A stretch of DNA of 32,000 bases. Source: Alphaproteobacteria bacterium. GTDB taxonomy: Bacteria > Pseudomonadota > Alphaproteobacteria > CAAHEQ01 > UBA3637. A program made the position numbers and the translations under genes. The notes beneath the pieces were generated by a model. It was not told where the DNA came from. It made no database searches and worked only from the letters and a program-made list of their open reading frames with translations. Positions within the stretch are counted from its first letter, which is position 1, and each line of letters starts with the position of its first letter. Positions 9,249-29,400 of the stretch are shown one piece after another. The DNA lies in contig JAZUQR010000008.1 of the NCBI GenBank assembly GCA_045605805.1, positions 35,932 through 67,931 of the forward strand, in the 5' to 3' direction.

Positions 9249-11483
9249 ATGATTTACTTTTCACATATTACAAACCCTTTTCAGCCGAATAAGGGTCGGA
9301 TAGATCGTGTCCTTGACGAAGGGAAAACGGTCTGGCAACTGGTCGAAGAACAGAAAGTTGACTTGAAACGCCCGACAATTTGTATGATCAACGGTGGTGC
9401 AGTCCTCAGAAAGTTTTGGAACGACCTTGTTCAGCCAGATTCGCTTGTTTGCTTTATCACGCTTCCGGAAGGCGGTGGCGGCGGTAAATCCTCAAATCCA
9501 GTTCAGGTTGTTTTAATGGTCGCGGTTGTTGTTGCTTCCGTTTATACCGGTGGTGCTGTGGCGGCGGCCTATGGTGCTGTTTGGGGTGGTGTTGCGGCGG
9601 CGGCAGTTTCCATTGGCGGAAGCTTTCTTGTCAACACATTCGTTCCACCACCTAAGGCCTCTCTTAACGGGTCCGGCTCGGCCAACTCAATAGCGGCACA
9701 AAGTCCGACTTATTCCTTGCAAGCACAAGGTAATCAGGCCCGGCTTGGCAGTCCGATACCGGTTATTTATGGCCGACACCTGATTTATCCGGATTTTGCC
9801 AGTCAGCCTTATTACGGCTATGCAAACGATGAACAATACACTTATCAAGTGCACTGCATCGGCCAAGGCTACTATGACATCGAGAAAATCCGGATTGAGG
9901 ACACGCCAATCAGCTCGTTTGAAGAGATAACATATCAGATTATCAATCCGGGCGAGAAGAACACGCTCTTTCGTGATGATGTGGTAACTTCGCCGGAGGT
10001 TGCCGGACAAGAGCTTTTGAAAGGAAACACGATCGGGCCGTTTGTCTTAAACCCGACCGAAAGTGAAATTGACCGGGTGGAAATTGATGTTGCTTGTCAG
10101 CGCGGCCTTTATTACGCAAATGACAGCGGCGGCCTGAACACAAAATCGGTTCAATGGCGCGTTGATGCCCGAAAAATTGATGATGAGGATAATCCCTTGG
10201 GTGACTGGTTCACTCTCGGGACCGAAACATTGTCAGCCAATACGGTCAACGGTCTTTACCGGACATATGGTTATTCGGTGGCAAAAGGCAGATACGAAGT
10301 CCGGGCCACACGTTTAGATGATAAAGATACATCTTCACGCGCTGGACATGAACTCCGTTGGGCCTCGGCAAAAGGCTTTATTGTATCAAATCCGAGTTAC
10401 GGCGACGTAACCTTGCTCGCCATTAAGATGAAAGCCACAAATAACCTGTCGCAACGTTCAAGCCGTATGGTTAACTGTATTGTGACAAGGAAGTTGCCGA
10501 CCTGGTCACCGTCTGGTGGCTGGACCGGCAGAGTGCCGACACGCTCTATCGCCTGGGCAATAGCCGACATCTTAAAAGCTAACTATGGTGCAAGACTGAC
10601 TGACAAGTCCATAGATCTTGAAGGTTTATACCGGCTGGATCAGATTTGGGCCGCACGGGGTGATACGTTTAATGCCGTCTTTGATTCCAAATTGACGGTT
10701 TATGATGCCTTGTCGCGAACCTGCAAAGTCGGACGTTCCGTTCCCTACATTCAAGGCGGCATTGTTCGCTTTGTCCGGGATGAGCCAAAATCAATACCGG
10801 TTGCATTGTTCGGGCCAAGAAACATCGTCAAAAACAGCCTGACAATTCAATACATCATGCCCTCTGAAGATACAGCGGACAGCGTTTGTGTTCAGTATTT
10901 TTCGGACCGAACTTGGAAGAACTCAGAGATAACCGGCAGTTTTGAAGGCTCCACCTCAGATAAGACGGCAACGGTTGAGCTTTTCGGTTGTACCGATAAA
11001 AACCAAGCTCTCCGGGAGGCCATCTATATGGCGTTGGCTAACCGATATCGCCGGCGAATTGTGACATTTTCAACCGAATTGGAAGGTCTGATCCCGAGCT
11101 ATGGGGATTTGATTTCCATTACGCATGATATGCCGCATTGGGGTTCAGGTGGTGAAATCCTGTCAAAAAATGACATGACTTTAACGCTATCCGAGCCGGT
11201 TGAGTTTACCGAGGGCCAAACTCACTATTTGGCTTTAAGAACTCGAACCGGGGAACTATCAGGACCGTACCGGGTAAAAGCCGGTTCGCTTCCGACTGAG
11301 GTTATTTTGCTAGATACTCCCGATATTCCTATCGATACCGGGACCGATGCAGAACGAACTCATTTTGCCTTTGGAACTCAAGACAAATGGGGAACATTAG
11401 CTCGTGTGACAGGGATTAAACCACGCTCCGGCAAGGTTGAAATTACCGCCGTCATTGAGGACAACAGAGTTCACGCCAATTAA
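9249..11483 (+). CDS. Host specificity / central tail tip protein (lambda J-like) with an I-like N-terminal module
   Basis: 744 aa. The N-terminal ~70 aa plus a GGGGGK and Gly/Ala/Val-rich hydrophobic stretch resemble lambda gpI. The remainder is the size of a J-type tip protein and sits in the J position. Confidence 0.7.
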   Translation: MIYFSHITNPFQPNKGRIDRVLDEGKTVWQLVEEQKVDLKRPTICMINGGAVLRKFWNDLVQPDSLVCFITLPEGGGGGKSSNPVQVVLMVAVVVASVYTGGAVAAAYGAVWGGVAAAAVSIGGSFLVNTFVPPPKASLNGSGSANSIAAQSPTYSLQAQGNQARLGSPIPVIYGRHLIYPDFASQPYYGYANDEQYTYQVHCIGQGYYDIEKIRIEDTPISSFEEITYQIINPGEKNTLFRDDVVTSPEVAGQELLKGNTIGPFVLNPTESEIDRVEIDVACQRGLYYANDSGGLNTKSVQWRVDARKIDDEDNPLGDWFTLGTETLSANTVNGLYRTYGYSVAKGRYEVRATRLDDKDTSSRAGHELRWASAKGFIVSNPSYGDVTLLAIKMKATNNLSQRSSRMVNCIVTRKLPTWSPSGGWTGRVPTRSIAWAIADILKANYGARLTDKSIDLEGLYRLDQIWAARGDTFNAVFDSKLTVYDALSRTCKVGRSVPYIQGGIVRFVRDEPKSIPVALFGPRNIVKNSLTIQYIMPSEDTADSVCVQYFSDRTWKNSEITGSFEGSTSDKTATVELFGCTDKNQALREAIYMALANRYRRRIVTFSTELEGLIPSYGDLISITHDMPHWGSGGEILSKNDMTLTLSEPVEFTEGQTHYLALRTRTGELSGPYRVKAGSLPTEVILLDTPDIPIDTGTDAERTHFAFGTQDKWGTLARVTGIKPRSGKVEITAVIEDNRVHAN

Positions 11484-12635: not shown

Positions 12636-12732
12636 AAGATTTTGTTTGACTTTTCTTGCAAAAATGGCTCGAATCATAAGCGGAGGTGTCATGAACCTCT
12701 GTAATCTTAATATTAAGAAAGGAAAATTAAAC

Positions 12733-13005
12733 ATGAATAAAACTGAATTTGTTGAAGCAGTTGCTAAAGAAGCTAAAGCCTCTAAAGCCGCCGCAAATGA
12801 ATTGGTAAACGCTGTTGTAGCTGTTGTTACAAAAGCATTGAAAAAAGGTGAATCAGTTCAAATCACTGGTTTCGGTACATTTGAAGTAGCAAAACGCGCC
12901 GCTCGTAAAGGTCGCAATCCTGCTACCGGTAAAGAAATCAAAATCCCGGCATCAAAAGCTCCTAAGTTCAAAGCCGGCGCAGTCTTGAAAAAAGCTGTAA
13001 AATAA
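12733..13005 (+). CDS. hup: HU/IHF-family DNA-binding protein
   Basis: 90 aa, MNKTEFVEAVA...GFGTFEV..R.AR.GRNP.TG..I.I....P.FK.G..LK, which matches the full-length HU signature. The ATG at 12733 follows TTAAGAAAGGAAAA, the same RBS cassette the phage genes use. Confidence 0.9.
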   Translation: MNKTEFVEAVAKEAKASKAAANELVNAVVAVVTKALKKGESVQITGFGTFEVAKRAARKGRNPATGKEIKIPASKAPKFKAGAVLKKAVK

Positions 13006-13025
13006 GCCAAATTTGTCTTAATATA

Positions 13026-13055
13026 CCTCACAGGTTCTATCCCGTGAGGTTTTTT
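13026..13055 (+). terminator. Rho-independent terminator after the HU gene
   Basis: Stem CCTCAC (13026-31) / GTGAGG (13044-49) followed by a T-run (13050-55). Confidence 0.7.
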
Positions 13056-13056
13056 G

Positions 13057-13085
13057 TTGCATTTTAATCTGCCATGGGTTATAAT
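13057..13085 (+). promoter_or_regulatory. Sigma70-type promoter for the DGR operon
   Basis: TTGCAT (13057-62), a 17-nt spacer, then a perfect TATAAT (13080-85). Predicted transcription start near 13092. Confidence 0.5.
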
Positions 13086-13091
13086 GACCGA

Positions 13092-13343
13092 GCTTGGTTA
13101 GTTATGCCCAATCAGGCTAGGATTCGATAAATCCGATTATCAGTATGGGCAGAAGGTATTTCTGTCGGCATCCGCCATGGATACGCCGAAAGATTGTGTT
13201 AGTTCATGGGTGGATGCCTGCCGAATAAGGTATCCACCCCAATAAGGCAGGACTATTTCTCATACTGATAATAGTTTATCGACATCCACCCGCCTCATCA
13301 CAGGTGGGTAAATTGTTGATATGGGGCGTATGAAGGGTGGATC
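13092..13343 (+). promoter_or_regulatory. Highly structured ~250-nt 5' leader (candidate riboswitch or attenuator) with SD-sequestering alternative helices
   Basis: Long-range stem 13136-13147 (attatcagtatg) with 13261-13272 (catactgataat). GGGTGGAT occurs at 13208-15 and at 13335-42, where it overlaps the SD of the first gene. ATCCACCC occurs at 13232-39 and 13284-91. GGCATCCGCC at 13167-76 also pairs with 13208-18. I could not match it to any known riboswitch class. Confidence 0.45.
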
Positions 13344-13784
13344 ATGGGCAAGATATGCTCGTTTTTTGGACACAGTCATTTATATGGACAATCGGACCGT
13401 ATTGCCCAACAATTAAGGCAAGTCATTATCAATTTAATCGGACAAGGTGTTGATACCTTTTACGTTGGCAATCATGGTGAGTTTGATATTTTTGCCAGCC
13501 GGGTAGCCTATGATCTGAAAAGTTTATATCCTAACATCCAAATCATTGTTGTTTTATGTTATCCAAATGAGTTGCAATACTTAAAATGTGCCTTCACGGA
13601 TTTTTTGATGCCTCCGGAAATAGAAGCGGCCCCCAAACGGGCTTGCATTGTAACTCGCAATCATTGGGTTGCTGATAATTCTGACTACATCGTCTGCTTT
13701 ATCAAATACAAAATGGGTGGAGCCTATGCGGCTATCGAATACGCCCAAAAGCACCATAAACAGATTATAGAGGTGAGAGCATGA
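13344..13784 (+). CDS. SLOG-family (DUF1273/YpsA-like) protein, probable DGR accessory gene
   Basis: 146 aa. FFGHS...G(Q)GVDTFYVGNHGEFDIFA...YPNIQIIVVL resembles the Rossmann-like YpsA/DUF1273 pattern. It is the first gene of the operon. Family assignment is from memory. Confidence 0.5.
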   Translation: MGKICSFFGHSHLYGQSDRIAQQLRQVIINLIGQGVDTFYVGNHGEFDIFASRVAYDLKSLYPNIQIIVVLCYPNELQYLKCAFTDFLMPPEIEAAPKRACIVTRNHWVADNSDYIVCFIKYKMGGAYAAIEYAQKHHKQIIEVRA

Positions 13785-13883
13785 ACCAAGCAGGCATACG
13801 TCACATTTGGGCTGAACGGTTGACTTCGCAAGGGAAGACGGATAAAATTGGCCCGGTAAAAACTCATAAAGAATGGTGTAAAA

Positions 13884-14477
13884 ATGCGTAAAGATCAAGT
13901 CAGTCGTAATCAAAGAATTCATATGCCCAGGAAGGTAGAAAACGTTTCGGGGCAATTAATGCTACCTGTGGATGTTGCTTCTGTAAAGCAAGCATTTGCA
14001 ACAGCTAATGACAAACGATTTAAATATGCTGATGCGCTGGATCAAGCAACCAAAGAAGATCCGGAATTGCATCAAATTTCAACAATTCCAAGCGATTCAA
14101 GCGAATTAATTGTTATAACGAAACTTAAAAAACTGGGGGCTTATATTCTAGCCGTGACGGTTAAATCGCCGGCCAAATTTAGACCTGTTTTTATCAATCG
14201 GATGCAAAATTACAGCTTGTCGGCTTTGGAAAATTTATTGAATGCTAATTTTATTCGGATGGATAGCCCCGAACATAAAGCCCAGCGAGAAAAGCATCAA
14301 ACGGATGCACTCATTCAGTTAAAAATGGTGGCATATGTTGCAATGCTGTCGGAAAATGCAAAGTGTATTTTGATGAGGCAGTATAAACAAATATCAATTC
14401 AGGTTGGTGAAATTATTAACCTGATTATGGCATGGAAAAAAAGTGATGATAAACAATGGCAAACAAAAAAGTTTTGA
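13884..14477 (+). CDS. avd: Avd-like accessory variability determinant (four-helix-bundle type) with an N-terminal extension
   Basis: The C-terminal ~120 aa are helical and basic, with the pattern SPAKFR...L..A......H.....A...L.....L.......QY.QI..QVGEI.NLIMAWKKS, like bAvd and 23S-IVS-type four-helix bundles. It ends 38 nt upstream of the TR, the canonical avd position. Alternative starts are at 13923 and 13959. Confidence 0.6.
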   Translation: MRKDQVSRNQRIHMPRKVENVSGQLMLPVDVASVKQAFATANDKRFKYADALDQATKEDPELHQISTIPSDSSELIVITKLKKLGAYILAVTVKSPAKFRPVFINRMQNYSLSALENLLNANFIRMDSPEHKAQREKHQTDALIQLKMVAYVAMLSENAKCILMRQYKQISIQVGEIINLIMAWKKSDDKQWQTKKF

Positions 14478-14515: not shown

Positions 14516-14635
14516 ATTGTGCCTCTTGGTCCGCGTCTTCAAATGAAAATGAAAACGTGCGTTGCGTCAACTATAAGGGCGATAAGAACTGGAATAACAC
14601 GAATAAACGTAAAATCTCGGCGCGCCCCGATTTGC
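14516..14635 (+). repeat. DGR template repeat (TR)
   Basis: 120 nt matching 16142-16261. It contains 37 adenines, including 8 AAY codons in the register of the target frame. It ends in the GC-rich element TCTCGGCGCGCCCC (14615-28). Confidence 0.95.
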
Positions 14636-14890: not shown

Positions 14891-15940
14891 ATGAAGATAG
14901 AAGAGATATTTACATTTGAAAACTTGGTTGCGGCCCACAAAGCATGTCGGCTGAGTAAGCAACATAAACGAGGAACAATCATGTTTGAAATTGAATTGGG
15001 GCGTAATGTCACCAATCTGGTCAAACAATTGACGGCTAGAACATATCGTTTAAGTCCTTACAGATCCTTTACCATTTATGATCCGAAGAAAAGATTAATT
15101 GAAGCGTTACCCTACAAAGACAGAGTGGTTTTAATGTGCTTTTGTCAGCATTCGGTAGCTCCCCGGCTAGAGAGACACCTGATTTATGACAATGCCGCTT
15201 CACGCAAAGAAAAAGGAACGCATTTTGCGGTAGAGAGATTGCATTCATTTATGCGAAAGCTGTACATCAAAAACAAAACAAATCGGATTTATTTTTTGAA
15301 ATGCGATATCAGGAAATATTTTCAAAGCATCAATCATGAGATTTTATTGGAACTGTTGGCCAAGACCGGTTTTTCGGCTGATGAGATGTGGTTTTTAAGG
15401 ATGATCATTGAATCACACGGTTCCATCGGGTTGCCTTTGGGTAATCAGACCAGCCAATGGTTTGCCTTGCTTTATTTGAACGGAATGGACAGGCTGATTA
15501 AAGAACGTCTGCGTATGTCCTGTTATGTGCGCTATATGGATGATTTTGTTATCCTAAGCGAAGATAAAGCCAAATTACAGCTGTGTAGAAAGCAAATTGA
15601 TGAATATGTCAAAGGATTAAAGCTGTCCTTAAATCAAAAGACACAAATCGGGCTGTTATCGGATGGTATTGATTTTTTGGGATTTAACCACAAATTATCG
15701 GCCACAGGTAAGATTATCAAATCTTTGCGTGGATCGGCCAAAAGCCGCCAAAGAAAATACCTGAAAACCATCCGTCATTACTATTTGAATGATGTCCTGG
15801 ATGATGAGTACCTAGACGTCCGTTTAGCCTCGTTTCGCGGGCATTTAAAGGGGACTAAGAACTGGATCCATATCAGCAACCGCTTGGCTTCCTTAAAACA
15901 CGAGAAACGCCGTACAAAAAAAATTGTTGCAGAACAATAA
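14891..15940 (+). CDS. DGR-type reverse transcriptase
   Basis: 349 aa. Has RT motifs including LPLGNQTSQ (the DGR-characteristic NQ/SQ motif) and the catalytic YMDD (VRYMDDFVIL). There is no maturase or endonuclease extension. The TR lies 255 nt upstream. Confidence 0.9.
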   Translation: MKIEEIFTFENLVAAHKACRLSKQHKRGTIMFEIELGRNVTNLVKQLTARTYRLSPYRSFTIYDPKKRLIEALPYKDRVVLMCFCQHSVAPRLERHLIYDNAASRKEKGTHFAVERLHSFMRKLYIKNKTNRIYFLKCDIRKYFQSINHEILLELLAKTGFSADEMWFLRMIIESHGSIGLPLGNQTSQWFALLYLNGMDRLIKERLRMSCYVRYMDDFVILSEDKAKLQLCRKQIDEYVKGLKLSLNQKTQIGLLSDGIDFLGFNHKLSATGKIIKSLRGSAKSRQRKYLKTIRHYYLNDVLDDEYLDVRLASFRGHLKGTKNWIHISNRLASLKHEKRRTKKIVAEQ

Positions 15941-15984: not shown

Positions 15985-17934
15985 ATGGACTTTACGTTTT
16001 TGAAGGAAGATCAGATATGGGGCGATGGTGCCCTAGATGTAATGAAGCGTTATGGCACGAAGGTTGCGCCAACGGATCTGACAGTCATATTGGGTGGTTA
16101 TATGACTGGTGGAGGTGATCGTACTTCTGAAGATGATCTAACTTGTGCCTCTTGGTCCGCGTCTTCAGATGGACATGGAGGCGTGCGTTGCGTCCGCTGT
16201 GAGGGCGATGAGCACTGGGGTGGCACGCATGGACGTGTGATCTCGGCGCGCCCCGCTTTGCCTCCATCGGAGGCATCTAAAATCAGCCCGAGCGAAGCGA
16301 GAGCTATCGCTGGAATCCGCGTAGCGGAATATGGGGAATACCCGCAAACGGTCGCCGATGAACGCACCAGCGAGAAATTAGAAAGATTACATGATTCAAG
16401 ATCTCTCCGTCCGACCGGAAAAAATTACACATTTGATTCAGTTGGTTTAACCGATTATGACACGTCTTTTAAGGCCACATCCTATCAGGAATATGAAATG
16501 GATGGCAAAAGGTATATCCGCGTTCCTGGACGGCCTGCTGACGACGATAGCAAACTATCTACTGGGGAACAGGTAGAGTCCGGAAAACCCTACTGGGTTG
16601 AGGTCCAACCGATAGAATGGCTGATGGATAGAAGCGGCACAATGGTCGCCAAAAAATGCTTATTCGCCGGTATTCAATTTGATACAAAGAGCTCATATGA
16701 CGGTGACTTCTCTAAAACGTCCATGAAACACTATTTGGACACTTATTTTGCCAAAGAAATGGAGCCAACCGGACGTGTGGCCGCAAGAACGGTATCAAGA
16801 GACTATGAAGAAGAGCCGGAAAGAAAAGAACCCGTTAAAAAGAAAGAACCGACAGCCAGACAGAAGAAATACGGGATCGAGGTATCTGATGAGCCTATGC
16901 CCGTCAAGGACCAAATAAACTTCTATATTCAAAACGGAATGAGCTTCATGCTCCATGGCCCGTCCGGTGTCGGTAAATCACAACGTGTGAAAGAAATTGA
17001 TCCGGATTTGACCTCAATTACGCTGTGTAACGGAATTTTGCCTGAAGATGTTATCGGTAAAACAATCTATCCAAACGGCGTGGGAGCCGATGGGGCCTCC
17101 GGTGGTGTTTGGGTGCCGCCTAAGTGGTACACGGATTTGTGCAGAAAATGCGAAACAGAACCGGACAAACAGCACGTCTTATTTATCGATGAAGTGACCA
17201 ATGCGCGTGAAACAACACAAAGTTTGATCTATCACGTAGCGTTGGAAAAATCAATTGCCCAGGGCGTTGGCAAACTGCCTAATAATGCTGTGGTCGTATT
17301 GGCCGGTAACAGCAAGGAAGAATCAGGAGCCGCTTATAACATGCCGGCCCCGTTGTTCAGACGTTTAAGCCATATTTACTTGGACTTGAATATTCAGGAT
17401 TGGTTGGAATGGGGCTCGGAACACAGCAAGAGCCATCCGGAAGATCCGGATCGCTTAAACATCCATCCATTAGTCGCCAGTTTTGTGGCAACCTACGGAC
17501 GGCAAGTGTTCTATTCCGAGTATGATGAAGAAAACCCCGGCAAGTTTGCACTTGACCCACGAAAATGGGAAAAAGTATCAGATAAAATCTACGCTAATAA
17601 GGGTATGATGCGCCGTGAGATTTTGGAAGCTGATATCGGGCCTGAGTTGGCGGCCAGTTTGTTGTCTTATGCTAAAAATCCGCCGCTATCCCTGGAAGAA
17701 GTGATTGAGGGCGAATATACCCGCGAGGATATTCCTACGGGACAGGATGCCCGTTTGGCGTTGGCGTTGAGTTTGCGTCATGCAACACCGAAACAAGTCG
17801 GGAAAGTACGTCAATTTGTTGAAACACAGTTAGGCGCAGAAAATCGTGCGATTTTTGACTCTGTTTGGGTGGGCAAGGATGATACACGCGCCATGCAGAT
17901 TGCCACTTTACATAACTTAAAGGGAGGAAGATAA
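15985..17934 (+). CDS. DGR target protein: N-terminal variable ligand-binding domain fused to a MoxR/AAA_5-like ATPase
   Basis: Strong RBS (AGGAGG). The VR occupies codons 53-92. A charged linker spans about aa 272-296. Walker A is GPSGVGKS (16957-16980), Walker B is VLFIDEV, sensor-1 is LAGN, followed by PLFRRL. The order and spacing of these motifs resemble MoxR/AAA_5 ATPases. Confidence 0.8.
   Translation: MDFTFLKEDQIWGDGALDVMKRYGTKVAPTDLTVILGGYMTGGGDRTSEDDLTCASWSASSDGHGGVRCVRCEGDEHWGGTHGRVISARPALPPSEASKISPSEARAIAGIRVAEYGEYPQTVADERTSEKLERLHDSRSLRPTGKNYTFDSVGLTDYDTSFKATSYQEYEMDGKRYIRVPGRPADDDSKLSTGEQVESGKPYWVEVQPIEWLMDRSGTMVAKKCLFAGIQFDTKSSYDGDFSKTSMKHYLDTYFAKEMEPTGRVAARTVSRDYEEEPERKEPVKKKEPTARQKKYGIEVSDEPMPVKDQINFYIQNGMSFMLHGPSGVGKSQRVKEIDPDLTSITLCNGILPEDVIGKTIYPNGVGADGASGGVWVPPKWYTDLCRKCETEPDKQHVLFIDEVTNARETTQSLIYHVALEKSIAQGVGKLPNNAVVVLAGNSKEESGAAYNMPAPLFRRLSHIYLDLNIQDWLEWGSEHSKSHPEDPDRLNIHPLVASFVATYGRQVFYSEYDEENPGKFALDPRKWEKVSDKIYANKGMMRREILEADIGPELAASLLSYAKNPPLSLEEVIEGEYTREDIPTGQDARLALALSLRHATPKQVGKVRQFVETQLGAENRAIFDSVWVGKDDTRAMQIATLHNLKGGR
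16142..16261 (+). repeat. DGR variable repeat (VR)
   Basis: Differs from the TR at 24 positions, all TR adenines (17 A->G, 6 A->C, 1 A->T). The other 83 positions are identical. It lies in frame inside the 649-aa target gene. Confidence 0.95.
16260..16274 (+). promoter_or_regulatory. Hairpin immediately 3' of the VR (candidate homing/target-recognition element)
   Basis: GCCTCC-ATC-GGAGGC, a perfect 6-bp stem with a 3-nt loop. It starts where TR/VR homology ends and is absent from the TR side. Confidence 0.6.
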
Positions 17935-17935
17935 A

Positions 17936-18400
17936 ATGTCATTAAAAGAAATACTCGAAAAAAGTCGGAAAAAACGCAAGAATGGCTTAGTCATTGGGCC
18001 TGATATAGGATGGCTTGGTCCGAAACCCGCCCGAACAAAAGCCGAAAAGATTAATCAAATCAAAACGGAATTTATTGATGATAGAGCTTTGTTGATTGTC
18101 GGAGCTAAAGCATCCGATTTTGCAGAATATCCGAAGATAGAGGCTGATATCTCAGTTCAACGTTTGATTCAATATATGGATACGTTTGAAAAAACGGAAG
18201 ATCATAAAGGTTTCTTGGTCATTGATGGGTTAGACAATATACCTGAATCTGAACAGGAAAAGTTTGTCCCCTTGTTAAAAGATCGGCAGATTTTATCCAG
18301 TAAGCTGCCAAATGAAGTTCAAATTTTGGTTCCTGTGAAAAAAATTGAAGACATTTCAAAAAGGATAAAATCTCTGATATTTCCTCTGAAGGTGGTATAA
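17936..18400 (+). CDS. Hypothetical protein, operon partner of the ATPase and VWA genes
   Basis: 154 aa. It starts 2 nt after the ATPase stop and ends in a TAATG overlap with the VWA gene. Apart from a Walker-B-like FLVIDGLD, I found no motif. Confidence 0.5.
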   Translation: MSLKEILEKSRKKRKNGLVIGPDIGWLGPKPARTKAEKINQIKTEFIDDRALLIVGAKASDFAEYPKIEADISVQRLIQYMDTFEKTEDHKGFLVIDGLDNIPESEQEKFVPLLKDRQILSSKLPNEVQILVPVKKIEDISKRIKSLIFPLKVV

Positions 18401-20247
18401 TGATCAAAGATGTTTTAAAACAACAAGAAGAAATTCAATATATCAAGGAACAGGTTTTAGCCAAGTTTCCCTTACTTGGTGTGACGATGATGCCTTTGTC
18501 GGTTGTTCCTGATGATAGAATTGGGACAGCGGCCACGGATGGACATAAAATTATCTATTCTCCAAAGTTTTTTAACACCTTATCGGACGAACAAAAACAA
18601 TTTGTCTTTGCGCATGAAGTGATGCATGTCGCTTTTAACCATATTTTGCGCAGTAAGGGTCGTAATCAAAGATTGTGGAATATCGCAACCGATTCTGTTA
18701 TCAACCAAATCTTGAAAAATGAAAAATTGCCATTAGCGGAAGGTGGCGTTGATATTGCAGAAGCTGTCAATCATTCGGCCGAGGAAATGTACGAAAAACT
18801 TTTGAAAAAGAAAGAACAGCGCGATCAGGAAAAACAGCAAAATCAAGAGCAAGATCAACAGCAACAACAATCACAATCCGGTGGGACGGACCAGCCTCAG
18901 GATCAGGATGCACAAAATCAGCCTGAACAGGAACAACCTCAGGATCAAGACGGACAAAATCAATCCGGACAAGACCAGCCTCAGGATCAAGACGGGCAAA
19001 AGGGACAAGAACAATCCGATCAACAATCAGACGGTTCAGAAAATCAAGATGAACAAAACAAAAATTCATCAGAAGGCTCGGAAGGATCCGAACAACAGAA
19101 AGATCAATCTCAAGATGGTGATTCAAACTCTGAACAAAACAGTTCTTCCGGTCAGGGAGACGAAAATCAATCTGATTCAAATTCCGAACAATCAAGCGAC
19201 AATCAACAAGGATCCTCTAAACCTCAAAAAGGTGGTCAACGTTCGCAATCCGGTTCTTCCTCTCAATCAGAAGACACCGACTGGGATGACAGCAATATCG
19301 ATTGGGACAATGAAGATGAACAAGTAGGCCACGATACACATGATATTTGGAAAGAAGCAGTTGAGCAAGCAGAACGTGAAGAACAACGAAAACAGGAAGC
19401 ATCCAAAAAGAAAAGTTTATGGGATAAACTAAAAGAGAACATGGGGCAAAAAGAAGTTAAAGAGGATCAGCAAGGCGAACCTCAAGAAAAAGAAGCTCCT
19501 GTACCGCAAGATGAAAACATGGATGCGTATGAAAAAGGCTTCTTGGCAGAAAATCAAGAAAAACGTCATGAGATGGCCGAACAGGTGCGCGAACAATTAA
19601 ACAGGATAAAAGGAAGCCTCCGTCAATCAAATGATCATACCACAGTCGGGGATGTTGGGGAAACTCAAACGCCGGTGGTTGATTGGAAAAAAATGCTTAA
19701 AAAATCTTTTGATGAAGAGCGTGATCGTTGGTCCTATCGTCGTTCCGGTTCTGAAAACGACTATATGGCTCGGGTAGAAGAATTGGAAGATGAAGGCCGT
19801 CCGGATACTGAGGTTATGTTGGATGTCAGCGGTTCTGTAAATATCCGCTTGTTACGTGAATTTTTAAGACAACTTAAACCGTTACTTAAATCCTCTAAAT
19901 TAAAGGTCGGTTGCTTTGATGAGTTTGTTTATGATTTTAAAGAAATAAAGACAAAAGAAGATATTGATCATTTTCAAATTACGGCAACATCTCAATGGAC
20001 TGAAAACTGGGATGCGGCTGTCCGGGCATTTTCTAAGAAAAAAGAAGTGAATAAAATTATTTTTACAGACGGATATCCATGCCCAGGAACAATGCCTAAA
20101 GAAGATTTAAAGGGTAAGAATGTTATTTGGATAGTTTATGGAAATAAAGATTTTAATCCATGCTGTGGTAAAGTCATCCAGGTTTCTGAACGACAACTTC
20201 AGTCGTATATTCAGACGGCCGCTCCACTTTCTAGAGGTGGAAGATAA
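18400..20247 (+). CDS. Putative HExxH metallopeptidase / VWA-domain protein (DUF2201-like) with a long disordered linker
   Basis: N-terminal HEVMHVAFNH motif (18613-). About 170 aa of Q/D/E/S/G-rich low complexity. The C-terminal domain has a MIDAS-like DVSGS (19822-19836). AAA_5/MoxR ATPases are commonly partnered with VWA proteins. Confidence 0.7.
   Translation: MIKDVLKQQEEIQYIKEQVLAKFPLLGVTMMPLSVVPDDRIGTAATDGHKIIYSPKFFNTLSDEQKQFVFAHEVMHVAFNHILRSKGRNQRLWNIATDSVINQILKNEKLPLAEGGVDIAEAVNHSAEEMYEKLLKKKEQRDQEKQQNQEQDQQQQQSQSGGTDQPQDQDAQNQPEQEQPQDQDGQNQSGQDQPQDQDGQKGQEQSDQQSDGSENQDEQNKNSSEGSEGSEQQKDQSQDGDSNSEQNSSSGQGDENQSDSNSEQSSDNQQGSSKPQKGGQRSQSGSSSQSEDTDWDDSNIDWDNEDEQVGHDTHDIWKEAVEQAEREEQRKQEASKKKSLWDKLKENMGQKEVKEDQQGEPQEKEAPVPQDENMDAYEKGFLAENQEKRHEMAEQVREQLNRIKGSLRQSNDHTTVGDVGETQTPVVDWKKMLKKSFDEERDRWSYRRSGSENDYMARVEELEDEGRPDTEVMLDVSGSVNIRLLREFLRQLKPLLKSSKLKVGCFDEFVYDFKEIKTKEDIDHFQITATSQWTENWDAAVRAFSKKKEVNKIIFTDGYPCPGTMPKEDLKGKNVIWIVYGNKDFNPCCGKVIQVSERQLQSYIQTAAPLSRGGR
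18817..19330 (+). repeat. Low-complexity Gln/Asp/Glu/Ser-rich coding tract with degenerate QPQDQDGQNQ repeats
   Basis: Repeated cagcctcaggatca(a/g)ga(c/t)g(g/c)acaaaa units. The tract creates spurious ORFs at 18881-19327 (+) and 18767-19195 (-). Confidence 0.8.
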
Positions 20248-29323: not shown

Positions 29324-29400
29324 TGGTCGGAGCGGCGGGATTTGAACCCACGACCACTTGCCCCCCAGACAAGTGCGCTACCAGGCTGCGCTACGCTCCG
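29324..29400 (-). tRNA. tRNA-Pro (anticodon GGG), CCA encoded
   Basis: The reverse complement reads CGGAGCGTAGCGCAGCCTGGTAGCGCACTTGTCTGGGGGGCAAGTGGTCGTGGGTTCAAATCCCGCCGCTCCGACCA. It folds into a cloverleaf with a 7-bp acceptor stem, GGTTCAAAT in the T-loop, and anticodon loop CU-GGG-GG. Confidence 0.9.

Follow-up and report, generated by a model that had tools for sequence, protein, structure and literature searches.

The window, by which we mean the whole 32,000-nucleotide stretch of DNA that was analysed, contains a sigma-70-type promoter followed by a long, structured leader, a gene for a small SLOG-fold protein resembling YpsA, and then the avd gene, template repeat (TR) and reverse transcriptase of a DGR. 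The promoter, the helices of the leader and the downstream gene are arranged as follows.

13057-13085, + strand: sigma-70-type promoter, read directly (TTGCAT 13057-62, 17-nt spacer, TATAAT 13080-85)
13092-13117, + strand: hairpin P1, GCUUGGUU / AAUCAGGC, with a loop that holds a conserved GCCC
13120-13149, + strand: 5' strand of helix P2, made up of P2a GGAU, P2b UCGAUAAAU and P2c AUUAUCAGUAUGG
13149-13166, + strand: hairpin P3, GGCAGAA ... UUCUGUC, whose base is the conserved GGGCA
13167-13218, + strand: helix P4, strand a GGCAUCCGCC (13167-76) with strand b GGGUGGAUGCC (13208-18)
13217-13251, + strand: helix P5, CCUGCC / GGCAGG around a conserved GAAUAAGG ... CCAAUAA
13252-13287, + strand: J5/2 (ACUAUUUCUC) and the 3' strand of P2 (CAUACUGAUAAU, AG, UUUAUCGA, C, AUCC)
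13282-13309, + strand: pivot c (ACAUCC followed directly by ACCCGCC) and hairpin P6 (13288-95 / 13302-09)
13323-13346, + strand: ribosome-binding region, with pre-SD GGGGCG, Shine-Dalgarno region AAGGGUGGAU (13333-42) and ATG (13344-46)
13344-13784, + strand: putatively regulated gene, encoding a 146-aa SLOG-fold, YpsA-like protein (Pfam YpsA, E = 6e-6, just short of the curated cut-off)

A first-pass annotation of the same DNA had proposed the promoter and a riboswitch-like leader with mutually exclusive helices, and direct reading of the sequence verified all of its feature coordinates. The promoter was borne out exactly as placed. Since its -35 agrees with TTGACA at only 3 of 6 positions, the site is omitted by a simple promoter scan; nevertheless the -35 TTG lies 17 nt upstream of the -10, and across 36 relatives (alignment A2) the -10 hexamer is kept at a constant distance from P1, with A13081 invariant and T13080, T13082, A13083 and T13085 each at least 90% conserved. 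Within the leader, GGCATCCGCC(ATG) at 13167-79 faces (CAT)GGGTGGATGCC at 13205-18 in a pairing that includes one G.U and one bulge, GGGTGGAT occurs at 13208-15 and 13335-42, and ATCCACCC occurs at 13232-39 and 13284-91. Such a doubled 8-mer with its doubled exact complement exceeds chance (2 of 2000 dinucleotide shuffles), and a perfect inverted repeat of at least 12 bp was seen in 2 of 300 shuffles. The 12-bp closing stem that had been described is indeed a perfect inverted repeat (13136-47 / 13261-72), but the true helix spans approximately 25-27 bp and joins 13120-13149 with 13259-13287. The leader had also been described as free of ORFs; this did not hold, as six ORFs of 20-39 aa were found there, although the start codon of the longest + strand ORF is lost across the family. 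Finally, GGGTGGAT at 13335-42 does precede the ATG at 13344, but because it stops 1 nt short of that codon the working Shine-Dalgarno sequence is more likely AAGGG at 13333-37.

Folding of the + strand from 13092 to 13360 yielded -103.5 kcal/mol with a z-score of -5.05, a stability equalled by 0 of 200 shuffles, while the - strand of the leader region gave a z-score of -3.57. Comparison with relatives demonstrated a shared layout in which the promoter is followed by P1, by the approximately 25-bp helix P2 closing a four-way junction (P3, P4 and P5), by the pivot (ACAUCC followed by ACCCRCC) and by P6, with the start codon at a fixed 52-62 nt past the start of c in 24 of 24 lineages examined. 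Most clades also keep a GGGC(U)GA ahead of the Shine-Dalgarno sequence. Three helices from the first-pass annotation, namely the closing stem, GGCAUCCGCC/GGGUGGAUGCC (P4) and the hairpin at 13288-13309 (P6), proved to be conserved throughout the family. A hairpin occupies the place of P1 in every relative with many differing stem sequences, and the stems are 91% paired as compared to 50% when they are swapped among sequences. Compensatory changes were found in 10 of 10 pairs of the two central helices of P2 and in 2 of 4 pairs of its junction-proximal helix. P3 is present in every lineage, with varying length and sequence. P4, whose two strands are separated by a clade-specific inserted hairpin, is the local minimum free energy hairpin in 30 of 30 lineages despite 22 distinct a strands, with 302 of 330 positions paired in the b strand. 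P5 is 100% paired, with compensatory change in two pairs, and P6 is 99.5% paired, with compensatory change in 3 of 6. The CUA of J5/2 and the UAG of the P2 internal loop are invariant. We also noted a candidate pseudoknot between the GCCC of the P1 loop and either of two GGGC elements: one lineage, L051, alters all three together (GCCU, AGGC and AGGC), but the first GGGC is shared with P2c, at its top, and with P3, at its base, and few sequences vary at these positions.

In total, approximately 30 distinct lineages were recovered, from gut Alphaproteobacteria and their phages; the family is taxonomically narrow. In a covariation alignment of 36 sequences, 97.0% of cells were paired, as compared to 78.8% in shuffles and 33-43% when partners were slid; compensatory changes occurred in 18 of 28 pairs, and the covariation score (0.507 versus 0.176) was reached by 0 of 500 shuffles. 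The paired cells included 62 G.U against 7 A.C combinations, and from this excess it follows that the structure belongs to the + strand RNA. Conservation and covariation in related loci, which had been set beforehand as the check that could refute the first-pass proposal, were both found, and the leader thereby presents the conserved, structured 5' UTR aptamer with covariation that a riboswitch class requires.

Several features of the survey bear on how these counts are read. The metagenome scan employed an RNA pattern that demanded b and c, so their conservation is partly a matter of ascertainment, but the loci selected by protein agree with it: every alphaproteobacterial SLOG locus found by protein alone (L001-L008, L067 and L070-L074) carries the RNA. 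Pattern matches were screened with a covariance model, R1, which represents the 3' domain only (111 positions). Four of 37 metagenome pattern matches (L036, L040, L050 and L064) had no R1 match and were set aside as chance, and 29 of 34 viral loci from a looser pattern were likewise attributed to chance because R1 accepted L075-L079 only. The first RNA pattern had found no match on viral contigs, as it required ACRUCC whereas the phage copies have CCAUCC; a SLOG protein scan of viral contigs also found none, and a BLAST comparison of the region with the phage collection matched the HU gene alone. A third phage copy (b = GGGCGGAU, c = ACCCGCCC) appears compensatory, but since P3, P4 and P6 are missing from it and its stability does not exceed that of shuffles (z = 0.01), it was treated as decayed and excluded as evidence.

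The protein encoded behind the leader gave an AlphaFold2 model with a mean pLDDT of 92.9, for which the best Foldseek match was YpsA (2nx2; E = 1.5e-6, TM 0.75), with DprA, ShosA, the ThsA SLOG domain and LOG ranking next. We know of no established biochemical function for YpsA-type SLOG proteins. The RNA always comes first in its unit, and the cargo differs between loci. More than 90% of bacterial loci place it ahead of the SLOG family, even where the proteins have diverged to 27-40% identity, and the arrangements comprise SLOG alone, SLOG with endonuclease I, endonuclease I alone, and a small protein 5' or 3' of SLOG. In many chromosomal contexts the RNA and SLOG gene form a compact single-gene module, and many such units are followed by convergent genes. 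In phages the cargo consists of two unrelated proteins and an SNase-like nuclease. A riboswitch class would be expected to precede several linked gene families, and that is the distribution observed here, with SLOG dominating and the functional link conjectural.

We then consider the alternative pairings. The minimum free energy fold in the window pairs b with c' (AUCCACCC, 13232-39, in apical P5) at -102.6 kcal/mol through a 12-bp helix, GGGUGGAUGCCU / AGGUAUCCACCC; forcing P4 gave -100.6 kcal/mol, and forcing ATCCACCC(13284) onto the Shine-Dalgarno GGGTGGAT gave -102.3 kcal/mol. By these computations three folds lie within 2 kcal/mol of one another in the window, which supports the proposal of alternative helices there; c' (ATCCACCC at 13232-39) is confined to the window's clade (clade A). 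The related proposal, that such pairing occludes the Shine-Dalgarno sequence, fared similarly: within this clade the c:Shine-Dalgarno and other folds are near iso-energetic, at 0-4 kcal/mol apart, but across the family no significant or consistent Shine-Dalgarno partner was found (z from -2.2 to +1.0), and the GGUGGAU-type Shine-Dalgarno is limited to the window's clade and L052/L066. Pairing of the Shine-Dalgarno sequence with J5/2-P2c gave a weak signal in an own-versus-other test (p about 0.014), attributable to L062, L044 and L052. In the window the c:Shine-Dalgarno pairing is worth -15.1 kcal/mol and P6 -13.1 kcal/mol, and this P6 is not terminator-like because its tail, AAAUUGUUGA, reaches a maximum of 4 U per 8-nt window. 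By the criterion of at least 5 U within 8 nt past the stem, P6 resembles a terminator in 18 of 30 lineages; among the 12 lineages without such a U-tract, 10 reach -8.7 kcal/mol or lower for c:Shine-Dalgarno pairing. U-tract strength and this pairing showed no significant rank correlation (rho 0.22, p 0.25, with lineages that are non-independent). If P6 acts as a terminator in some members and has to compete with c:Shine-Dalgarno occlusion in others, there is no obvious single on/off logic. The complementarity of b and c (7-8 bp) is maintained in 39 of 39 sequences, with G-to-A in b accompanied by C-to-U in c in L007 and L033 and non-compensatory changes in the variant L071. P4, being local and of 10-11 bp, should win over the 8-bp b:c helix, which would also have to cross the long P2.

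As for known RNA classes, the suggestion that the leader matches no known riboswitch was upheld by Rfam 15. At gathering level the sole hit in the whole window was a tRNA (29327-29400); a permissive scan of 12950-13450 returned at best HCV_J7880 at 23.6 bits against a threshold of 90 and S4-Clostridia at 18.7 against 37.5, both implausible; and ten loci with other family members yielded nothing at E <= 1 except one tRNA. No tRNA or tmRNA was detected in the leader region by a dedicated search, and our literature search returned no paper matching the RNA or describing an RNA motif for DUF1273, YpsA or SLOG genes. By sequence comparison, then, the leader represents a new conserved RNA family that matches no Rfam 15 family and that we have not found described anywhere. 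A leader-peptide attenuator is not indicated, as the start of the longest + strand ORF, AUGGGCA (13145), reads AAGGGCA, ACGGGCA, GUGGGCA or UAGGGCA in relatives.

The first-pass annotation had treated the leader as part of the DGR operon, and this did not survive comparison: the RNA tracks the SLOG/YpsA-like gene, and no relatives of the window's reverse transcriptase or Avd were found adjoining it outside the window's own lineage. The riboswitch idea, which is partly supported, keeps its central element, a genuine conserved structured leader, and loses both the family-wide Shine-Dalgarno-occluding partner and the association with DGRs. Between the SLOG gene and avd the window has a promoter-like site, and no terminator-like site was found there. 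We regard the leader's link to the DGR as incidental or unproven; given read-through from the SLOG gene into avd-TR-RT, the leader might gate mutagenic retrohoming in this prophage.

Several other explanations for the leader were weighed. That it is a DGR- or retron-type component (a template, primer or msr/msd-like RNA) for the adjacent reverse transcriptase is hardly conceivable. The enzyme lies 1.5 kb downstream and the long P2 recalls the a1/a2 repeats of retron ncRNAs, but this is a DGR reverse transcriptase whose true TR (14517-14635) has its VR partner at 16143-16261, and every one of the 23 mismatches between them falls on a TR adenine; the leader is single-copy in the window and has no repeat partner there, it matches no reverse-transcriptase-associated or retron family in Rfam, and the distribution described above contradicts the idea. 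A phage-derived processive antitermination RNA resembling HK022 put, giving read-through into the SLOG gene and the DGR, also appears highly improbable. As with put, the element is phage-borne, promoter-proximal and cis-acting, and phage contigs that share synteny with the window carry two full copies, each placed closely behind a promoter at the start of its unit; the two units converge and occupy the variable cargo region that follows HU. The terminator-free interval between the SLOG gene and avd would suit such a role. However, the RNA has another fold and exceeds put in size approximately threefold, the tight start-codon spacing implies control of the first gene, and read-through would be purposeless in the many chromosomal single-gene units that lie before convergent genes.

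A stand-alone RNA with its own promoter, ended at P6 and acting in trans or as the antitoxin or partner of the downstream protein, is very unlikely in our estimation. The succession of promoter, RNA, terminator-like P6 and gene is that of type III toxin-antitoxin loci with their leaky terminator, the compact RNA and SLOG module recurs in diverse chromosomal contexts, and YpsA overproduction reportedly inhibits cell division in Bacillus. The likeness to ToxI-type loci goes no further than this order: tandem direct repeats are absent, the downstream protein has a SLOG fold in place of an endoribonuclease toxin, the window's P6 is not terminator-like, cargo genes vary, and conserved sequence and fixed spacing extend to the ribosome-binding site. 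We also consider it unlikely, if less so, that the fold binds a protein, either the SLOG product, with autoregulation as known from ribosomal-protein leaders, or an RNA-binding regulator from the host or a phage. In favour of such a protein are the near-constant SLOG cargo, the similarity of P4 and c/P6 (AUCCRCC / GGUGGAU), which might offer one protein a pair of sites and which co-vary in L007 and L033, the SLOG fold shared with the nucleic-acid binder DprA, and the dedicated protein repressor that controls clostridial SLOG homologs and marks tight control as a recurring need. Set against these are units that lack SLOG (L047, with endonuclease I alone, L057, with a small protein alone, and the two unrelated phage proteins), the phage contigs in which the SLOG gene next door has no RNA, and the four-way junction itself, whose many invariant unpaired nucleotides are more typical of ligand-binding RNAs.

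Judged from sequence and computed structure, the leader is therefore best described as what is probably a new cis-regulatory, riboswitch-like RNA of the SLOG/YpsA-like gene. It resembles four-way-junction riboswitches of the SAM-I type (RF00162) in being a promoter-proximal 5' leader with a closing helix around a junction with invariant unpaired nucleotides, in having the 3' strand of that helix overlap a segment that could form a terminator-like hairpin or an anti-Shine-Dalgarno pairing, and in that its lineages appear to differ in platform. Unlike these, it matches no Rfam 15 family and is larger, at approximately 230-250 nt, with P1 as an additional hairpin 5' of the closing helix; and unlike riboswitches generally, whose expression platforms usually vary, it conserves P6 and pivot c as strongly as the core. 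Serial complementarity of a (AUCCGCC), b (GGGUGGAU), c (AUCCACCC) and d (GGUGGGU) recalls the 1:2, 2:3 and 3:4 pairings of trp-type attenuators, as do the c:d hairpin followed by a U-tract in many members and the co-change of all four segments in L007 and L033. In contrast to those attenuators, a leader peptide is not conserved, and b and c lie approximately 70 nt apart with P5 and the 3' strand of the 25-bp helix between them, the b:c pairing being putative. Orphan structured RNA motifs upstream of genes of unknown function, such as the DUF3800 and RT motifs, have been described (Weinberg et al. 2017, PMC5737381); like them, the present RNA was found by conservation and covariation before a poorly understood gene family, partly in phages and metagenomes, and its function is suggested by position only, but it is absent from those families as represented in Rfam 15.

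For this probable riboswitch-like leader we propose the following mechanism. The SLOG/YpsA-like gene would be transcribed with nucleotides 13086-13343 as its 5' leader, starting from the promoter that precedes them. The junction of P3, P4 and P5, rich in invariant unpaired nucleotides and closed by the long P2, would be stabilised or destabilised in cis by an effector that could be a small molecule or a host factor. The junction's state would set the roles of the G-rich strand b and of the pyrimidine-rich pivot c. The first half of this pivot completes P2 and the second half forms P6, and the ribosome-binding site follows at a constant interval. Within the window's clade, the b sequence (GGGUGGAU) recurs as the Shine-Dalgarno sequence, which could be occluded by c or the clade-specific c', so that control there would be exerted at translation; in the majority of other lineages a U-tract comes after P6, so that control there would be exerted by transcription termination. 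That the leader switches, that it senses an effector and which sense, on or off, the folded state would have are all matters that we infer. A more specific reading, possible but doubtful, is that of a new riboswitch class sensing a nucleotide-derived signal, which would turn on SLOG/YpsA-like proteins along with secreted nucleases in gut Alphaproteobacteria and would have been captured by temperate phages for conditional expression of cargo, including, by read-through in the present prophage, an active DGR. Such a signal could be a cyclic nucleotide or alarmone, NAD/ADP-ribose, or a base, nucleoside or (deoxy)nucleotide.

The locus is a cautionary case for DGR research, as the leader is not a DGR component. 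More generally, the RNA would add a large four-way-junction element to the candidate riboswitches and regulatory leaders, found in uncultured gut bacteria of one lineage and in their phages, where one module heads varied cargo genes. YpsA-type SLOG proteins are widespread, and a dedicated sensor RNA would offer a direct experimental handle on them; its ligand, if found, would reveal what the SLOG protein handles, the more so given the endonuclease I and SNase-like nuclease that also occur as its cargo.

Reading positions 12700-13700 confirmed, at their positions, all the elements that the first-pass annotation had listed for the leader of the 146-aa gene:

13057-62 (+), promoter element TTGCAT, followed after a 17-nt spacer by TATAAT at 13080-85
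13136-47 and 13261-72, perfect 12-bp inverted repeat
13167-76, strand GGCATCCGCC, facing GGGTGGATGCC at 13208-18
13208-15 and 13335-42, repeated 8-mer GGGTGGAT
13232-39 and 13284-91, complementary 8-mer ATCCACCC
13288-13309, hairpin
13344 (+), start codon ATG

This pattern exceeds chance: an 8-mer and its exact complement, each present twice, arose in 2 of 2000 dinucleotide shuffles, and perfect inverted repeats 12 bp or longer in 2 of 300. The plus strand folded at -103.5 kcal/mol (z = -5.05), which none of 200 shuffles matched, while the minus strand was a weaker outlier (z = -3.57). The closing stem, described earlier as 12 bp long, does contain that perfect repeat but extends to ~25-27 bp in the computed fold.

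The leader and its gene lie beside a diversity-generating retroelement (DGR):

9249-11483, phage tail gene, gpJ-like
ending at 13005, HU gene with terminator, upstream of the leader
13344-13784, 146-aa ORF, directly after the leader
13884-14477, bAvd
14517-14635, TR
14891-15940, reverse transcriptase (RT)
16143-16261, VR, inside the ORF after the RT

Structural modeling indicates that the 146-aa protein is a SLOG-fold protein of the YpsA type. The Pfam YpsA match (E = 6e-6) was just under the cut-off; an AlphaFold2 model (mean pLDDT 92.9) had B. subtilis YpsA (2nx2) as its best Foldseek match (E = 1.5e-6, TM 0.75), followed by DprA, ShosA, Moco carrier protein, the ThsA SLOG domain and LOG. 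Assignment of the gene as the DGR accessory gene 'MSL' was rejected, as that name stands for MutS-like (PMC5758913). The DGR looks active, because all 23 TR/VR mismatches fall at TR adenines. Its VR is unusually close to the N-terminus (codons ~53-92) of a 649-aa protein (ORF 15985-17934), the remainder of which gave weak AAA/MoxR-like matches. Downstream lies a DUF2201 metallopeptidase with a VWA-like domain (ORFs 17936-18400 and 18400-20247 in the region), and the pair recalls the vWA-MoxR systems described in association with DGRs (PMC7159879). Inside the DUF2201 gene, three 42-nt tandem repeats (18888-19013, 74-79% identical) are rich in Gln, Asp and Pro codons. A tRNA gene at 29327-29400 (-) may be a prophage attachment site.

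No Rfam 15 family matched the window leader or ten loci carrying other members, and a full-text literature search returned no paper in which an RNA of this sort was tied to DGRs or to DUF1273, YpsA or SLOG genes. A protein-based scan limited to one genome per species yielded 29 SLOG loci. Eight of these came from gut alphaproteobacterial MAGs, with SLOG identities as low as 58%, and every one of the eight has the leader upstream. The 21 clostridial loci lack it and carry palindromic operators with a divergently transcribed HTH gene instead, which looks like a protein-repressor answer to the same control problem. At clostridial loci L009-L029, L068 and L069, the HTH gene, of XRE type, and the palindromes, which are repeated (such as TTACCCGAATACGGGT), lie ~100-300 nt upstream of the SLOG start; some of the clostridial SLOG loci are in conjugative-element settings (T4SS genes in L068). 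A degenerate DNA pattern built from two conserved blocks then retrieved 37 stretches of metagenome sequence, of which 33 are true members. To avoid pattern bias, further SLOG homologs were sampled by protein alone; all the alphaproteobacterial ones carried the RNA (L067, L070-L074), including a variant, L071, beyond reach of the DNA pattern. From these comparisons, the leader is judged a member of a conserved RNA family.

The same architecture recurs in every member. Downstream of a promoter whose -10 element is conserved come hairpin P1, with GCCC in its loop, and the long helix P2 (sub-helices a, b and c); P3, P4 and P5 radiate from the four-way junction that P2 closes. P3, which varies, has GGGCA at its base; in P4, strand a (GGCAUCYRCC) is paired to strand b (GGGUGGAUGCC); and P5 encloses GAAUAAGG ... 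CCAAUAG. Junction J5/2 (GGGCUACUU) and the P2 3' strand come next. The pivot c has two halves, ACRUCC and ACCCRCC: its first four paired bases complete P2, and the second half starts hairpin P6. The linker after P6 usually contains GGGCUGA and precedes the Shine-Dalgarno sequence and start codon. In each of the 24 lineages examined, the start codon comes 52-62 nt after the beginning of c.

Covariation was tested on 28 pairs of P2, P5 and P6 in a 36-sequence MAFFT alignment. Paired cells amounted to 97.0%, versus 78.8% in column shuffles and 33-43% with slid partners; both-sided changes occurred in 18 of the 28 pairs, and the covariation score of 0.507 (versus 0.176) was attained by none of 500 shuffles. 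P1 is present everywhere as many different stems, 91% paired versus 50% with stems swapped. Local folding gives P4 as the minimum free energy hairpin in 30 of 30 lineages, with 22 distinct a strands opposite a nearly invariant b. Since G.U pairs outnumber A.C pairs by 62 to 7, the structure is that of plus-strand RNA in the gene sense, and a DNA cruciform was rejected.

A second viral scan, with matches checked by covariance model R1 (3' domain), identified five IMG/VR phage contigs that carry the RNA. They are syntenic with the window (identities of 52% for gpJ, 51% for ORF175 and 54% for HU), and their HU gene immediately precedes the RNA. Four of the five also carry a decayed copy, and three of those four (L076, L078 and L079) have two full copies that face each other, heading two convergent units:

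L078, 7570-7870 (+), full copy
L078, 9600-9900 (-), full copy
L078, 8385-8600 (-), decayed copy
L076 and L079, likewise
L075, one full and one decayed copy
L077, truncated copy

The minimum free energy fold of a full phage copy is the exact consensus plan (z = -6.33). The first genes of the phage units encode unrelated proteins of 172 and 162 aa, and one unit goes on to encode an SNase-like nuclease that is secreted. The SLOG gene of the phage itself (L078 10275-10751) lies beside the units, lacks the RNA and has HTH neighbours.

Outside the window's own lineage, the RNA and SLOG gene form a compact unit at unrelated chromosomal sites (by recA, groEL, an efflux pump, glyA, enolase or a tRNA), often with a convergent gene next downstream. 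A tRNA lies directly beside the unit in L046 (1325-1399, Rfam call) and L067 (~2080-2155, read from sequence). Endonuclease I (PF04231, E = 4e-29) follows SLOG in two clades (L044, L058, L049 and L035) and in L047 stands alone directly after the RNA, without a SLOG gene. A small conserved protein is encoded before SLOG (L042), after it (L031, L070, L074) or alone (L057):

L044, 4595-5356 (-), endonuclease I
L058, 1909-2658, endonuclease I
L035, 7953 onward, endonuclease I
L047, 2522 onward, endonuclease I
L042, 938-1123 (-), small protein
L070, 1941-2114, small protein
L074, 1580-1771, small protein
L031, 69-221 (-), small protein
L057, 2701-2799 (-), small protein

The endonuclease placement suggests a functional link of SLOG proteins to DNA or nucleotide scavenging. 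The endonuclease I genes that follow an RNA-led SLOG gene adjoin it directly and overlap its stop. The small protein (~50-60 aa, motif ALKEVKRA.QEPL) had no Pfam match. Given this varied chromosomal and phage cargo, the RNA is a portable, promoter-proximal module that heads several gene families, with the DGR as one neighbour in one lineage. The earlier proposal that the leader could make the DGR conditional is thus unsupported as a property of the element, Avd and RT being neighbours of the RNA in no lineage but the window's (L001-L004, L045). Within the window, the interval from the SLOG stop (13784) to avd (13884) contains no terminator-like site, which makes read-through into avd possible; the same 100-nt gap holds a promoter-like TTGACT, 17 nt, TAAAAT (13820-13848, 10/12 matches), so the DGR may have a promoter of its own.

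Position, fixed start-codon spacing, conservation up to the ribosome-binding site and variable cargo together favour a regulatory leader that acts in cis. P6 (-8 to -18 kcal/mol) has five or more U in the 8 nt behind it in 18 of 30 lineages and there looks like an intrinsic terminator, with textbook cases in L007, L061 and L071. The other 12, the window included (four U), lack the U-tract, and in ten of these the Shine-Dalgarno sequence can pair with c at -8.7 kcal/mol or better (-15.1 in the window). The window's clade has an extra, clade-specific pivot copy, c' (13232-39), at the P5 tip, and its Shine-Dalgarno sequence matches strand b exactly. In forced-pair folding, the minimum free energy structure of the window leader, with b paired to c' over 12 bp, came to -102.6 kcal/mol, against -102.3 for the c:Shine-Dalgarno fold and -100.6 for the family fold with P4. 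Near-equal alternatives were obtained for six of seven other clade members; L033 lacks the long b:c' helix. Such near-degeneracy in the models is what a switch would be expected to show, and it supports the mechanism first proposed for this clade. Across the family, b and c are complementary over 7-8 bp in 39 sequences, and a G-to-A change in b accompanies C-to-U in c in two lineages. The b:c pairing could be antiterminator-like, in a 1:2, 2:3, 3:4 arrangement with a and d (GGUGGGU); counting against it, P4 should thermodynamically out-compete b:c. The riboswitch or attenuator first proposed is partly supported, by a conserved structured leader with near-degenerate computed folds in the window's clade, but a single conserved Shine-Dalgarno partner, sought family-wide, was not found; pairing with J5/2-P2c gave a weak signal in an own-versus-other test (p ~0.014).

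The size of the RNA and its many invariant unpaired junction nucleotides look like those of ligand-sensing RNAs. Response to a protein, through SLOG autoregulation or a host factor, is plausible at a rather low probability: SLOG dominates the cargo, and P4 and c/P6 resemble two similar sites, but the members without SLOG in their unit speak against strict autoregulation. We consider a stand-alone or antitoxin-like RNA quite improbable; gene order is the only shared feature, and tandem repeats and an RNase are absent. Antitermination of the put type, a shade less probable still, would suit the phage copies but does not fit the single-gene units on chromosomes. Least credible is a role as DGR or retron RNA, contradicted by the distribution of the RNA and by the separate TR.

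The element is probably a new family of a known kind, the structured cis-regulatory leaders. Its interest is real but specialist, and lies mainly in the access it gives to SLOG/YpsA function and in its being a regulatory module carried by phages.
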